This document shows positions 243-17,687 of a stretch of 17,812 bases of DNA, piece by piece. Every line of letters begins with the position of its first letter. Positions within the stretch are counted from its first letter, which is position 1. The translations under genes were made by a program, and so were the position numbers. Where the stretch lies: positions 6,440 to 24,251 of the forward strand of contig JAXINV010000064.1 of NCBI GenBank assembly GCA_034190465.1, given 5' to 3'. This DNA is from Candidatus Asbonarchaeum danakilense. GTDB taxonomy: Archaea; Nanohalarchaeota; Nanosalinia; Nanosalinales; Nanoanaerosalinaceae. The notes under the pieces were generated by a model. The model had not been told where the DNA came from. It saw only the letters and a program-made list of their open reading frames with translations, and did no database searches.

Positions 243-253
243 GGTATTTGTGT

Positions 254-346
254 GATGCAGGTGGCTCCGTCGCAACCTGATGGTTGCTCACGGGTGAACC
301 GCAAGGGTTCACCGTGTCAGCCACCCGTGCATCGGGCTGTACAGCC
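254..346. repeat. Palindromic three-way-junction element, unit 2, plus a short flanking palindrome
   Basis: GATGCA-GGTGGCT (254-266) pairs with AGCCACC-cg-TGCATC (319-333). It encloses GCAACC-TGAT-GGTTGC (272-287) and GGTGAACC-GCAAG-GGTTCACC (293-313). GGCTGTACAGCC palindrome at 335-346. Confidence 0.8.
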
Positions 347-369
347 TACACGAACACGTGCTGAGACAC

Positions 370-377
370 TTTTATAA
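370..377. promoter_or_regulatory. Archaeal TATA box, possibly bidirectional (lipoprotein gene and tRNA precursor)
   Basis: TTTTATAA is the only strong TATA-like run between the divergent tRNA and lipoprotein genes. Confidence 0.55.
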
Positions 378-415
378 CGTTGGGAAGGCATCGTCTCCTA
401 TAGAGTGTGAACGAT

Positions 416-1060
416 ATGGGGCGTGGACGATACGTTATCGTGCTTGTAGCGGCTGTCCTCCTTGCAGGCTGTACTGCTCCAGAGACTCGAAAGCCTGATC
501 TGGAGGATCTACCGCGTGCTGATACGGATGTGAAACAAGAGCTGATTGAAGCATTCAATATAACACAAATTGGCGTTAACACGACTGATATCGGCACACA
601 GACCGATACACCGTACCGGAGGGTGATCAGCAAGCACGTCAAAGCGTCTGAGAAGAGCATCGATGCCGTCATGATGCAGCGGAGAGGAATCGTAGAATCA
701 TGGAGTAATGTCCTAACGATAAACAATTCGAACGGCACATCGGACAAGCCTGTTCCCGTTCTTATCATCTCAACAGTGCGGCTGTACCTCGATCCGAAAG
801 ATGCTGCAGCCCGTTACAATTCCATCAGGCGGCAAGCGAGACAGAACGGCGGTAATGTTTCATCAATAATGGTCAACGGGACGAATGTTACCCGTATCCG
901 TATCCAGGCATCGAAAGGCCAGAACAATGTGATGTTCCTGGCGAATCAGAAGAACCTTCTCTACTACGCCTCCGCTGTCGATGAAGACAGGATGTTTGTC
1001 GATTTTGCACGACGGCTATTCGAGCTGATGTTGGAACCTGCCGTGAACCAGCGAGGATAG
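416..1060 (+). CDS. Putative surface lipoprotein of unknown function
   Basis: Basic N-terminus MGRGR, hydrophobic stretch and lipobox LLAGC; 7 N-x-S/T sequons. ATG at 416 preferred over GTG at 407. Confidence 0.8.
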   Translation: MGRGRYVIVLVAAVLLAGCTAPETRKPDLEDLPRADTDVKQELIEAFNITQIGVNTTDIGTQTDTPYRRVISKHVKASEKSIDAVMMQRRGIVESWSNVLTINNSNGTSDKPVPVLIISTVRLYLDPKDAAARYNSIRRQARQNGGNVSSIMVNGTNVTRIRIQASKGQNNVMFLANQKNLLYYASAVDEDRMFVDFARRLFELMLEPAVNQRG

Positions 1061-6913: not shown

Positions 6914-7360
6914 TCACTCGCCTCTGATGTTCTTGTCGATGTAGATATTCATGTGTTTCTTGTTCCGGAAGAACCCGCCTTTCGCCATGTTGTACAGCTT
7001 GCGGTACTCGGAGCTGTCGAGTTCGTCCTCGTCCCGCATACGCTTGAGTTCTTTCCGGAGGGCGCGGATGTTCTCCATCCATTCTTCTTTCTCCGACTTG
7101 CGGCCGCCCTTGCTTCCTTGCTTGCTTCCTGCACCCTTGTGGCGGCCTTTCTTCTTCTGCTTATCGCGTTCACGTGCACGGCCTCTGCTGGTGCCGTCCT
7201 TGTCCTTCTTCTGGATGACGCCTGATTCGATCAGGTTCCTGATGTCTTGCTTGGTGATGGCGTCGTGGACCTCATCGGTCCTGTCTGGGTCGATCCAGAC
7301 CCTGCTCTTCCCGACATCAAGGACGTCGGCCGCCATCTTTTTCTGTGATCGCAGGTTCAT
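6914..7360 (-). CDS. rpl19e: 50S ribosomal protein eL19
   Basis: QKKMAADVL.VGKSRVWIDP, AITKQDIR, YRKLYNMAKGG. Confidence 0.97.
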   Translation of the reverse strand: MNLRSQKKMAADVLDVGKSRVWIDPDRTDEVHDAITKQDIRNLIESGVIQKKDKDGTSRGRARERDKQKKKGRHKGAGSKQGSKGGRKSEKEEWMENIRALRKELKRMRDEDELDSSEYRKLYNMAKGGFFRNKKHMNIYIDKNIRGE

Positions 7361-7384
7361 CGTGCATCTCCTTGCTTGAGCATC

Positions 7385-7393
7385 TTTTTTAAA
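7385..7393 (-). promoter_or_regulatory. Internal TATA box for rpl19e
   Basis: TTTAAAAAA begins 33 nt upstream of the rpl19e ATG. Confidence 0.65.
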
Positions 7394-7398
7394 CCTGT

Positions 7399-7575
7399 TC
7401 AGTTGTTACGGAATTCGACGTCGTCGCCCTGCTGGAGGATGATGTACCGGTTGAACACTGCGTCGCAGCTCGGGCAGACGAGTCCGTCTTCTTGCTCCTC
7501 GTTGACACCAAAGCTGCCACAGTTCGGACATTTGTCGTCGTCCGTACGGAAAAATGAGCTCCCTACCATGTTCAT
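7399..7575 (-). CDS. Small CPxC zinc-ribbon protein (58 aa), absent from the ORF track
   Basis: MNMVGSSFFRTDDDKCPNCGSFGVNEEQEDGLVCPSCDAVFNRYIILQQGDDVEFRNN*. ATGA overlap with the rpl32e stop, GGAGG upstream, fills the whole gap. Alternative start at 7569. Confidence 0.85.
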   Translation of the reverse strand: MNMVGSSFFRTDDDKCPNCGSFGVNEEQEDGLVCPSCDAVFNRYIILQQGDDVEFRNN

Positions 7576-7970
7576 TCCTCCTCTTCGTCGTCACGACCGT
7601 CGTTCAGGATGTGGATGCCGAGTTCGTCTGCCTTCTCCAGGATGGCTTCACGCTTCCGACCACCGACATTGGAGGCGATCCGTGCCGCCTCTTCTTCGGG
7701 GTCCAGTTCGTCGAGATCCGCCGGCCTGTGGACGAGGATGTCCTCGTAGCCGGAGGGATGCAGGCCACGCACTGCTTCCGGTGCGCGGTACCCGGGATCG
7801 GGCATGTCCTTGGCGAACTTCTTCTTGAGGCGCACGTTGCTGTGTTTGCCCCGTGCACGTCGCCAGGACTCGGGGACGCGGTTCTGCTTGTGGGAGTTCT
7901 GCCGTGTGAAGTCCTTCTTTTTCTTCTCCCGTTCCCGCATCAGCCGTTCTTTCTCGTTGTCGTCAGTCAT
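7572..7970 (-). CDS. rpl32e: 50S ribosomal protein eL32
   Basis: FTRQNSHK..SWRRARGKHS, GYRAPEAVRGLHPSG, GIHILN. Confidence 0.97.
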   Translation of the reverse strand: MTDDNEKERLMREREKKKKDFTRQNSHKQNRVPESWRRARGKHSNVRLKKKFAKDMPDPGYRAPEAVRGLHPSGYEDILVHRPADLDELDPEEEAARIASNVGGRKREAILEKADELGIHILNDGRDDEEEE

Positions 7971-7972
7971 CG

Positions 7973-8494
7973 TTACTCACCTTTGCTCGTGATGTAGATA
8001 CCGTCCTGGAACTTCCGCGGGTCGCGTGTCCCCTTGTAGCATTCCTGTTCGATCCGTGCCGCGGTCTGTGAGACCTTCTCCTTGTCCGGGCCGGTGACAG
8101 TGATTTCGTCGTCGTTGATCTCGACGCTGACACCGTCCATGATCTCGACGCGCCGGTCGGACCGTTCACCGATGAAGTTCTGGATCACGACCTCGTTCCC
8201 CTCGACCTTGACGGACATGGGGAAGTGGGCGTAGACGGTCTTGAGCTTGTATTCATACGGTTCCTGAACGCCCTCGATCATGTTCTGGAGCTTGGAGCTG
8301 TACGTGCCGACGACCGCCTTGATATCGCGCTTGGTGGCGTCGGTCCGGACGGTGACGGTGTCGTCACCGATCTCGATGGCGACCTGCGGGTGCTCCAGCT
8401 TCTGCCGGATTTCATTGCTGTCGCTCTCGACGACGATGCTGTCGCCGTCCTGGCTGACCGTGATATCATCGGGGATCGTTACCTGTTCTTCCAT
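7973..8494 (-). CDS. rpl6: 50S ribosomal protein uL6
   Basis: YAHFPMSV, NFIGER, DKEKVSQTAARIEQ, RDPRKFQDGIYI. Confidence 0.97.
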   Translation of the reverse strand: MEEQVTIPDDITVSQDGDSIVVESDSNEIRQKLEHPQVAIEIGDDTVTVRTDATKRDIKAVVGTYSSKLQNMIEGVQEPYEYKLKTVYAHFPMSVKVEGNEVVIQNFIGERSDRRVEIMDGVSVEINDDEITVTGPDKEKVSQTAARIEQECYKGTRDPRKFQDGIYITSKGE

Positions 8495-12438: not shown

Positions 12439-13311
12439 TCACTCCATCTGGGATTCGATCCAGCTGACGAGTGTTTTCCTGTCCTTGTTGTCCTGCTCTG
12501 CCTCGAGCAGGGCCTCGTAGTCGACGTCGTCCTCGTCGTCCAGTTCGGCCTTGATGTCCTTGATCGTGTTGGTGACGAGTTCCTCGTAGTCGATGTCGCT
12601 CTCGCTGCCGGAGGACGCCTCGGTCTCGGCCGCTTCGTCGGCCGTCTCTTCGGCCTCCTGTTCCTCGCCGTCCTGTCCTTCGTCCTCGACGACGGGTTCG
12701 GGTTCTTCGTCTTCAACGACGTCCTGACTGACCTGCTGCCGGGTCATGTAGCCTGGCAGCTCTTTCATGATACGGACCTTGACACCGAGTGCGCCGGGCT
12801 GTGTGACTGCTGCCCGGTACGCGGAGTCGACGTACTGTTCCGCGGTGTTGCCGCATTTCTTGACGTATCCCTGTGTGAATTTCTCGCTGCGCCCTCTGCT
12901 GCCTGACAGCTTGCCGGCGATCTCGATCTGGACGCCGACGGCACCGGCATCCATGACACGCCGGGTGTATGTGTTACCGACACGCTTCGGGTGGCCGCCT
13001 TTCTCCAGCCAGCCCTGGATGTTCTTGGCGACGACCTCGGCGTCCAGGTCGGGCTCTTCGACTTCCTGCGCCTCGACCTGTGGGTTCTCGATGCCGAAGT
13101 CGTCCTTCAGCTTGCGTGTCACTTCCTTGATCCGGTGGCCGCCCCGTCCGATGACGAGGCCGGGCTTCTCGGAGTAGATGGTTATCTTCGTCGATGTTGA
13201 GGTCTTGGTGAAGTCGATGTGGCTGTAGTTGGCCTTGTCCAGTTCATCTTCCAGCCACTCGTCGATCTTGACCTTCTTGATGCTGTCCTGCACGAACTGC
13301 TTTTCGATCAT
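12439..13311 (-). CDS. rps3: 30S ribosomal protein uS3 with an acidic linker and an extra C-terminal module
   Basis: KH motif KPGLVIGRGG, GAVGVQIEIAGKL, GVKVRIM. Confidence 0.97.
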   Translation of the reverse strand: MIEKQFVQDSIKKVKIDEWLEDELDKANYSHIDFTKTSTSTKITIYSEKPGLVIGRGGHRIKEVTRKLKDDFGIENPQVEAQEVEEPDLDAEVVAKNIQGWLEKGGHPKRVGNTYTRRVMDAGAVGVQIEIAGKLSGSRGRSEKFTQGYVKKCGNTAEQYVDSAYRAAVTQPGALGVKVRIMKELPGYMTRQQVSQDVVEDEEPEPVVEDEGQDGEEQEAEETADEAAETEASSGSESDIDYEELVTNTIKDIKAELDDEDDVDYEALLEAEQDNKDRKTLVSWIESQME

Positions 13312-17199: not shown

Positions 17200-17667
17200 T
17201 CAGTTGTTCTCCATGTCGGGGACCGGTGATGCGGTCTCCTCCTTGTAGGTGTCCATGATGATCTGCGTGCTGGCGTTCTTGACGAGGTCGTTGTGGGTAT
17301 CGAGCAGGTCGTCCTTGACGAACTCCGACATGTCGTTTTTGTCCTCGAACTTGCCGATGATAAGGATGTCTGTCTTGCCGGTGACGCGGTACATGGACGC
17401 GATGTTGGGGTGGTCTTCCAGCCGCTCCCGTAGCTCCGACCGTTCGCCGTGGAGCTTGAGCTCGATCTTGGCGGAGAGGTCGTAGCCGATCTTGTCGTGG
17501 TCGAGTTTGATTGTGTAGTTCTTGATGACGCCCTCGTCCTTCATGCGATTGATGCGGTTGGTCACTGTAACTGGGGTGGTGTCGATGGAATCCGCTATCT
17601 CTCTGTAGGGCTTTCTGCCGTCTTCTGACAGGTGTGTCAGGATCTTTCTGTCTAGTTCGTCGAGCAT
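17200..17667 (-). CDS. Lrp/AsnC family transcriptional regulator
   Basis: LDELDRKIL..L..DGR.PYREIA HTH, GVIKNY, RAM domain YRVTGKTD. ATG at 17667 has a GGAGG SD. Confidence 0.95.
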   Translation of the reverse strand: MLDELDRKILTHLSEDGRKPYREIADSIDTTPVTVTNRINRMKDEGVIKNYTIKLDHDKIGYDLSAKIELKLHGERSELRERLEDHPNIASMYRVTGKTDILIIGKFEDKNDMSEFVKDDLLDTHNDLVKNASTQIIMDTYKEETASPVPDMENN

Positions 17668-17687
17668 CGTTCGCTGCCTCCACATCC

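Follow-up and report, generated by a model that had tools for sequence, protein, structure and literature searches.

In relatives of Candidatus Asbonarchaeum danakilense that lack the insertion described here, the ribosomal-protein genes rpl32e and rpl19e abut. In this genome a short open reading frame lies between them. Is the frame a gene, and what might its product do? The window (the whole stretch of DNA analyzed, 17,812 nt) carries, as we read its ORFs, a large archaeal ribosomal-protein operon on its minus strand; the non-ribosomal genes of this operon we take to be those for SUI1, Rpp29, SecY and Cbf5. A preliminary description had noted an ORF with the motif CPNCG-x13-CPSC between rpl32e and rpl19e, and the sequence bears this out: the 58-aa frame at 7399-7575, on the minus strand, encodes the motif, which occurs once in the window and in 0 of 200 base-shuffled windows.

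The same description had the frame coupled to rpl32e by an ATGA overlap and served by a Shine-Dalgarno (SD) site. The overlap is present (ATG 7575-7573, rpl32e stop 7574-7572) and so is AGGAGG (7582-7577), which lies 1 nt from the first ATG and 7 nt from the second, at 7569. In the orthologue from the same genus the upstream ATG is missing and only the second start exists, and a public gene call, P0002, is 56 aa long and 100% identical. Because orthologue start, ribosome-binding-site spacing and public call agree, we prefer the start at 7569: the protein is most likely 56 rather than 58 aa long and begins 2 nt past the rpl32e stop. With the second ATG favored, the ATGA overlap is probably incidental. 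The AGGAGG purine run doubles as codons of the acidic tail of eL32 and therefore says little by itself. We use the name ZR for the 56-residue four-cysteine gene starting at 7569 (Table 1). It is single copy in its own genome (69 bits versus 18 for the next match in a profile search). Nor is it hidden, as had been thought, since annotators already call its orthologues, without a family name: the close public homologues that carry an organism name stand as 'hypothetical protein' under Ca. Nanohaloarchaea or Nanohaloarchaeota, which places the window in Ca. Nanohaloarchaeota, and those from Aenigmarchaeota appear in public records as Ca. Aenigmarchaeota hypothetical proteins.

Table 1. Positions of ZR, its neighbors and putative signals in the window.
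Feature	Position	Strand	Basis
rpl19e (eL19), downstream neighbor	6914..7360	-	NF006343 198.9 bits, cut-off 131
38-nt spacer with TATA-like run 7393-7386, 33 nt before the rpl19e start; candidate internal promoter	7361..7398	-	same-genus comparison; function inferred
ZR gene, preferred form: 56 aa + stop, from second ATG	7399..7569	-	sequence, same-genus orthologue, 100% identical public protein P0002
Four-Cys core C14-x2-C17-x14-C32-x2-C35 (56-aa numbering), predicted zinc ribbon	7465..7530	-	alignment of 147 sequences; models
Extra upstream ATG + one codon (58-aa form), overlapping the rpl32e stop as ATGA	7570..7575	-	sequence; probably not main start
rpl32e (eL32), upstream neighbor	7572..7970	-	PF01655 127.9 bits; NF006332 158.5 bits, cut-off 120
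AGGAGG, Shine-Dalgarno-like site within final rpl32e codons, 7 nt before ATG 7569	7577..7582	-	sequence; function inferred
Gene read as rpl6 (uL6)	7973..8494	-	named from sequence and operon order

We searched 70 Nanohaloarchaeota genomes, from five families (f1-f5), with a profile built from 20 ZR sequences, counting full-length matches at E <= 1e-23. ZR is present at full length in 20 of the 70, namely in every one of the 20 genomes of f1, f2, f4 and f5, and in 0 of the 50 genomes of f3; rpl19e was detected in 69 of the 70. All 20 loci display the order L6-L32e-ZR-L19e-L18, two of them with one extra gene before ZR. Likewise, a Ca. Nanoanaerosalina record holds ZR in the same rpl32e-rpl19e slot. 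Among the 49 f3 junctions available we read 40; none contains ZR, and rpl32e and rpl19e are at most 8 nt apart in 35. As several f3 genomes are single contigs, ZR is truly missing from the slot in this family, which, judging by its size, is probably Nanosalinaceae. The f3 genomes also gave weak matches to the ZR profile; of the 10 inspected among 13, we take seven to be clear eS31-type ORFs, two eS31-type by position and one NrdR-like. Five f3 genomes (L064, L068, L070, L075, L083) carry junction inserts of 39-235 nt, four of which are short related spacers and one a 78-aa acidic ORF without cysteine knuckles. In some f3 genomes the uS3-like gene adjoins eS31 (L044, L047, L048).

Beyond Nanohaloarchaeota, a search of 1.84 billion representatives returned 93 matches, many of them 48-71-aa proteins with the ZR cysteine pattern. 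Named genomes, when scanned, yielded 18 loci: 14 are archaeal (10 carry the title Aenigmatarchaeota) and 4 bacterial. Every archaeal locus (14/14) sits in the rpl32e-rpl19e slot; both flanks are present in 12, and the other 2 stop at a contig end. The bacterial matches lie in unrelated longer proteins and were dismissed, and longer matches from the large search (nine read, seven scanned) are other zinc-finger proteins. Of 301 Aenigmatarchaeota genomes, 169 match the profile, and just 3 of them do so more than once; ZR was not found by this search in the other 132, and rpl19e was matched in 287. Fifty of these matches were inspected and 45 lie downstream of rpl32e. All of the 30 best follow rpl32e, 29 of them with rpl19e after ZR, and several of these loci contain additional genes; among 20 weaker ones, 15 follow rpl32e (9 without rpl19e nearby) and 5 have no ribosomal neighbor. 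Three of these five could be extended, and all three are convergent with a radical-SAM gene; the fourth is near-identical to one of the radical-SAM loci, and the fifth precedes EF-2, its upstream side ending at a contig end. We also read 60 junctions from profile-negative Aenigmatarchaeota genomes, chosen among those with a listed rpl19e place. None contains ZR; 49 show both flanks, and in 39 of the 49 the gap is 40 nt or less.

In a third phylum (42 genomes, some of whose proteins NCBI labels Ca. Aenigmarchaeota) the profile gave 32 matches, about 31 of which we accept; one is probably spurious, a 564-aa frame containing a stop, and another, outside the loci read, is weak. All 30 loci read lie between rpl32e and rpl19e. 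Another 131 archaeal genomes produced 10 full-length matches, all in Aenigmatarchaeota or the third phylum, and 6 partial ones to other proteins. Further archaeal samples searched with a deep profile (E <= 1e-7) gave 3/251, all previously counted, 1/61, eL43-like, 0/17 and 0/201, and thus no new member. Five of seven weak genome matches inspected outside the three phyla look eL43-like, which we judge by motif. As weak evidence on fused forms, 4022 longer candidates included one match, of 407 aa and unrelated in appearance. Thus the syntenic homologues that the preliminary description called for are abundant, and its term lineage-specific stands in that ZR is clade-restricted, although the clade is much wider than one genome group. 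Furthermore, dN/dS, which it had proposed as a check, is 0.03-0.22 in 13 of 15 hand-chosen close pairs, the other 2 being saturated, showing that ZR is under purifying selection. Together the data show that ZR is a real, conserved, lineage-restricted gene common to three related phyla. A shadow ORF, or chance reading, was rejected on the grounds of selection and synteny.

The history of ZR appears largely vertical. In a ZR tree of 43 loci each phylum forms a clade (FastTree support 0.89-0.97), and ZR distances follow those of uL6+eL32+eL19 for the same loci (Mantel rho 0.41, 0/2000 permutations), where the reference tree itself does not show Aenigmatarchaeota as one clade. With a tree length of 31 versus 18-22 for its neighbors, ZR evolves 1.4-1.8 times faster. 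On a 161-column tree of 167 of 194 loci (27 were left out for a missing flank or a short eL32 match), ZR presence changes state 9 times versus a shuffled mean of 56, on a topology with low support in places and non-random sampling; this count does not distinguish gain from loss. The one shared slot and the congruent gene tree favor one origin and several losses; ZR tracks the species tree and was likely lost several times. ZR is non-essential, being missing across f3 and in many Aenigmatarchaeota.

Spacing at the downstream end is tight as well. From ZR stop to rpl19e start the median is 11, 10 and 22.5 nt across the three phyla, and an SD-like core lies at or just past the ZR stop in 15 of 20 Nanohaloarchaeota loci. 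In the same-genus genome (L002) the first 23 nt of the ZR-rpl19e spacer, including the TATA-like run, are identical and the rest has diverged; the SD-like part varies between both genomes of the genus. The TATA-like run is a candidate internal promoter for a leaderless rpl19e transcript.

We compared ZR with known families. No cut-off was passed in Pfam or NCBIfam, the Pfam set being one without the newer PF26788, and no characterized family gave the confident match that would have identified ZR. PF26788 is precomputed on 2 of 36 ZR homologues, a caveat on the novelty of ZR, and we found nothing on it in the literature. Scans of individual members gave scattered weak zinc-finger matches, and no single family was matched by more than 15 of 60 or 8 of 43 members. 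The earlier view that ZR is none of eL37, eL40, eL43, eS27 and eS31 holds, since the genome encodes separate genes for all of them: eL37 (74.7 bits), eL40 (56.7) and eS27 (73.9) score above cut-off, as do aS21 (75 bits), Nop10 and Spt4; eS31 (47.2 bits), eL24 and Rpo12 are best matches below cut-off; and eL43 lies elsewhere. ZR scores 12 bits against NF003058 (eL43; cut-off 87; 4 of 43 members match at E <= 0.01), 11.6 against NF001669 (eS31; cut-off 54) and 11.8 against NF011481 (aS21/PRK14890; cut-off 61), whose two zinc knuckles it does not have. Among its listed family matches (for Pfam the best 25 of 39), eS27, eL37 and eL40 do not appear. Against the TFIIB ribbon PF08271 it scores 21.4 bits (gathering score 29), as a stand-alone 56-aa ORF without cyclin repeats.

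Several known systems resemble ZR in part. The closest in its ribbon core is eL43, which is the best single-domain PDB match (23.4 bits, 2.5 above the next family) and aligns by HHalign with a probability of 96.8 over 42 columns (3 eL43-like rows), versus 93.1 over 25 (8 rows) for eS31. However, ZR has its own C-terminal signature and lacks what we take to be the hallmarks of eL43, an N-terminal basic helix and a GAY-type motif after the ribbon. Descent from eL43 is a lead only. In the ESM Atlas, searched with two queries, the nearest clusters are unnamed and the nearest named one, for the window protein, bears L37ae (0.92, 130 shared features), again a lead only. In both Nanohaloarchaeota genomes read, our own (L221 215-460 (-)) and G014 (L227 82-342 (-)), eL43 is without cysteines, so its zinc ribbon appears lost there; the own-genome eL43 also lacks the N-terminal RFG..RYG-type segment. 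PDB sequence matches cover the ribbon core only, and the top whole-sequence profile match is TFS4. TFIIB, TFS/TFS4 and Rpa12 share the CPxCG...CxxC beta-ribbon and supply the best, non-significant fold rows, but ZR is a single ribbon without cyclin folds, second ribbon or conserved acidic hairpin. LysW/ArgW are similar in size, with a ribbon body and a tail with conserved terminal residues, and match weakly; their C-terminal EDWGE motif is missing from ZR. The last ZR residue varies (N, T, S, H, M, A), which does not fit a covalent carrier site, and a LysW-like carrier was rejected.

Recent additions to the archaeal ribosome offer a parallel in kind. The small, acidic, cysteine-knuckle protein aS21 (HVO_2753/PRK14890) was unannotated until it was seen on the 30S subunit by cryo-EM; it carries two zinc knuckles and is described as widespread in archaea (PMC7005279), with a report in Methanosarcina (PMC12605026). 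ZR differs in having four cysteines, in having been found in three phyla only and in coexisting with a separate aS21 gene in its own genome. The lineage-restricted aS33 and aS34 of Saccharolobus, Thermoprotei-centered, were likewise not annotated as ribosomal before cryo-EM, and aS34, about 80 aa with two zinc motifs, binds zinc (10.1101/2024.07.16.603699); neither chain is among the listed PDB sequence matches of ZR. In sets of 5 genomes each, a sample too small for statistics, ZR showed no complementarity with eL20, eL34, aS21, eL43 or eL37. The same was true of eL33 in 5 genomes, where the positive control also gave no signal. The Pfam eL40 model missed 5 of 5 genomes, and NCBIfam found eL40 in G000. 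The open literature searched, which leaves most subscription journals outside its scope, contains no description of ZR. The main texts of PMC9258230 and PMC8204110 have 0 occurrences of L32 and L19, and their supplementary family tables may list ZR as a hypothetical family; 10.64898/2026.06.17.729505 has 0 occurrences of eL32, eL19, zinc and operon.

The protein itself is built around its cysteines. All four are invariant in 147 of 147 aligned sequences, partly by construction because the set was chosen by profile or motif. Also conserved among the 147 are the Pro and Gly of the first knuckle, a second Gly, Thr and Phe/Tyr downstream of the last Cys, and an Asn close to the C-terminus; a strand F-N-x-F/Y-G-hydrophobic follows the ribbon, and a Phe lies near the N-terminus. 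C-termini read NN in 26 of 26 third-phylum sequences, N or H in Nanohaloarchaeota and often WN, WT or WS in Aenigmatarchaeota. Stand-alone copies also end in Asn, which places the constraint on the protein and not on overlap with the next gene. A cis-acting leader peptide was rejected, as ZR persists outside the operon and retains the terminal Asn there. AlphaFold models of the window protein (60 rows; pLDDT 78.7, pTM 0.57) and of an Aenigmatarchaeota member (147 rows; pLDDT 73.5, pTM 0.50) display the same pattern, with short strands only and less confident tails, and ZR is predicted to fold as a small zinc ribbon. The Pol I Rpa12 ribbon tops the Foldseek rows for both (E 0.56 and 0.25). In fold searches with the two models all matches had E > 0.001 and Z < 5 (highest Z 3.4 and 3.9), and such non-significant matches show neither a new nor a different fold.

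ZR is neutral to acidic even in non-halophiles. Its net charge per residue is -0.055, 0.0 and -0.039 in the three groups, 0.0 being that of 52 Aenigmatarchaeota-group sequences, whereas eL32 and eL19 range from +0.05 to +0.22 (Aenigmatarchaeota group, +0.175 for eL32 and +0.22 for eL19). Only one alignment column exceeds 40% Lys/Arg. A basic rRNA-binding surface, typical of ribosomal proteins though not universal, is therefore not seen in ZR. In its own genome ZR (-7) resembles aS21 (-7) and eS27 (-8) more than eL37 (+13), and its acidity thus does not exclude a ribosomal role.

The junction that holds ZR also accepts other genes, among them uS3, a metallo-beta-lactamase-fold gene and a 114-116-aa gene; since these are unrelated, position in the slot is weaker evidence than it appears. 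Depending on the genome, inserted genes flank ZR on the rpl32e side or on the rpl19e side. In some Aenigmatarchaeota uS3 has moved into the rpl32e-rpl19e junction (L117 1666-2370 (-), Pfam-confirmed; L161, L212 and L219, by resemblance). The metallo-beta-lactamase-fold gene sits between rpl32e and ZR in L128 (878-1498 (+)), and L131 and L137 have a gap matching its size. The 114-116-aa gene lies between rpl32e and ZR in genus g3 (L007 1128-1472 (+); L013 1689-2039 (-)); it has a CxxC...HPxC pattern and an acidic C-terminal half, and the one copy scanned has no Pfam match. In L199 a 106-aa cysteine-rich ORF (250-570 (-)) precedes rpl19e and shares its first eight residues with eL19, which suggests that the insertion duplicated the rpl19e gene start. 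In one Aenigmatarchaeota group (L232, L233) the run ends after rpl6-rpl32e-ZR and rpl19e lies elsewhere, so that rpl6 moves together with rpl32e and ZR in this rearranged clade; the gene preceding the block is presumably that of an RNA polymerase A''-like subunit.

What, then, might ZR do? We suggest, with a probability of roughly one half, that it is a non-essential, lineage-specific ribosomal or stably ribosome-associated protein. One Zn2+ held by the two CxxC knuckles would staple a small beta-ribbon, whose tails at either end would be poorly ordered. ZR would be co-transcribed and translationally coupled with ribosomal proteins and hence made in similar amounts. It may dock mainly on protein rather than wrap rRNA, as we believe the equally acidic eS27 and aS21 do, using the N-terminal Phe, the F-N-x-F/Y-G-hydrophobic strand and the terminal aromatic or Asn-Asn residues. 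With ribosomal proteins ZR shares a ribosomal operon, tight spacing, mostly single copy and vertical inheritance. There is also a precedent: aS21, aS33 and aS34 are small proteins that had escaped annotation until cryo-EM revealed them, and two of the three bind zinc (PMC7005279; 10.1101/2024.07.16.603699). It is operon position only that points to a ribosomal role. Against it stand a charge unlike that of the rRNA-wrapping eL32 and eL19, the dispensability of ZR, its faster evolution, the presence of non-ribosomal genes in the operon and the one clade with ZR outside it. The original proposal of a ribosomal protein or assembly factor thus keeps its conserved gene in a ribosomal slot and is weakened by charge, by the tolerant junction and by the off-operon clade. 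A fuller account, which we hold tentatively and at less than even odds, makes ZR an undescribed ribosomal protein that may descend from a duplicated eL43 zinc ribbon and that entered both the ribosome and the spc-like operon in the ancestor shared by Aenigmatarchaeota, Nanohaloarchaeota and the third phylum. ZR would then be an innovation of symbiotic DPANN archaea and a clade marker, having arisen once and been lost repeatedly, including from the largest nanohaloarchaeal family.

The same neutral to acidic composition beside strongly basic neighbors would suit a transient assembly factor or chaperone that shields eL32, eL19, uL6 or a pre-50S site with an acidic, aromatic surface and leaves before maturation. 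Tails modelled less confidently are expected of a protein that folds on binding, and ZR travels with rpl6-rpl32e where the operon breaks in one clade. Inserts on either side, depending on the genome, show however that ZR is tied to neither neighbor, and eL32 and eL19 are kept in lineages without it, so we regard this role as unlikely. It is highly improbable that ZR is a known zinc ribosomal protein in disguise (eL43, eS27, eS31, eL37, eL40 or aS21) or a stand-in for a missing one, even though its core is most like eL43 and eL43 is cysteine-free in both Nanohaloarchaeota genomes read. Its own genome has genes for all six, a ZR-positive Aenigmatarchaeota genome has a strong eL43 (E 1e-27), a ZR-negative f3 genome also carries a cysteine-free eL43, and neither eL20, eL34 nor aS21 shows a complementary pattern in 5 genomes each.

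The operon may instead lend its strong expression to a growth-coupled passenger, such as a zinc buffer or sensor or an enzyme adaptor. A junction that takes unrelated genes, persistence off the operon in one clade and repeated loss all agree with this idea, yet the other inserts are limited to small clades and ZR keeps its slot across three phyla. Moreover, the conservation of aromatic residues at the surface and of the terminal Asn implies a particular partner, which a plain metal store could do without, and we find a passenger rather improbable. Quite improbable, too, is a role on the transcription side, in which ZR would either bind RNA polymerase, like the ribbons of TFS, Rpa12 and TFIIB, or regulate the operon that encodes it. 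The Rpa12 and TFS4 matches speak for it, as does the presumed A''-like gene ahead of rpl6-rpl32e-ZR in one clade. These matches, however, are confined to the ribbon core, and by fold none reaches significance; ZR has no conserved acidic hairpin pair or basic face, and its genome already has Rpo12, Spt4 and, judged by motif, a TFS-like gene. An RNA polymerase B'' insertion common to Nanohaloarchaea and Aenigmarchaea (10.64898/2026.06.17.729505) also speaks for such a role, yet f3, without ZR, would carry this insertion as well, as it is reported in all Nanohaloarchaea (same source).

ZR is an old, clade-restricted family in a highly conserved operon and a good candidate for an undescribed lineage-specific ribosomal protein. 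Unlike recent archaeal ribosomal proteins, which were found only after cryo-EM, it is predicted from genomes, so that proteomics, and unassigned density in a first ribosome map from these phyla, can be searched for it directly. Gene loss is what one expects of reduced symbionts, and a small slot gene kept under purifying selection across three phyla points to an unrecognized part of the translation machinery. Sister lineages with and without ZR provide a natural comparison. Irrespective of what ZR does, its shared insertion at a single operon position provides an independent character, one that does not depend on composition, in support of the debated grouping of Nanohaloarchaeota with Aenigmarchaeota, to which insertions have also pointed (10.64898/2026.06.17.729505).

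Elsewhere in the window, we see no convincing ORF in the first 330 bases (17-330), which might specify a structured RNA. A gene that we take to encode an Lrp/AsnC-like regulator (17200-17685 (-)) closely precedes the operon. The uS3-like gene at 12439-13311 (-) has an acidic C-terminal extension of roughly 90 aa, the end of which looks, by eye, like the acidic half of the extra gene of genus g3.
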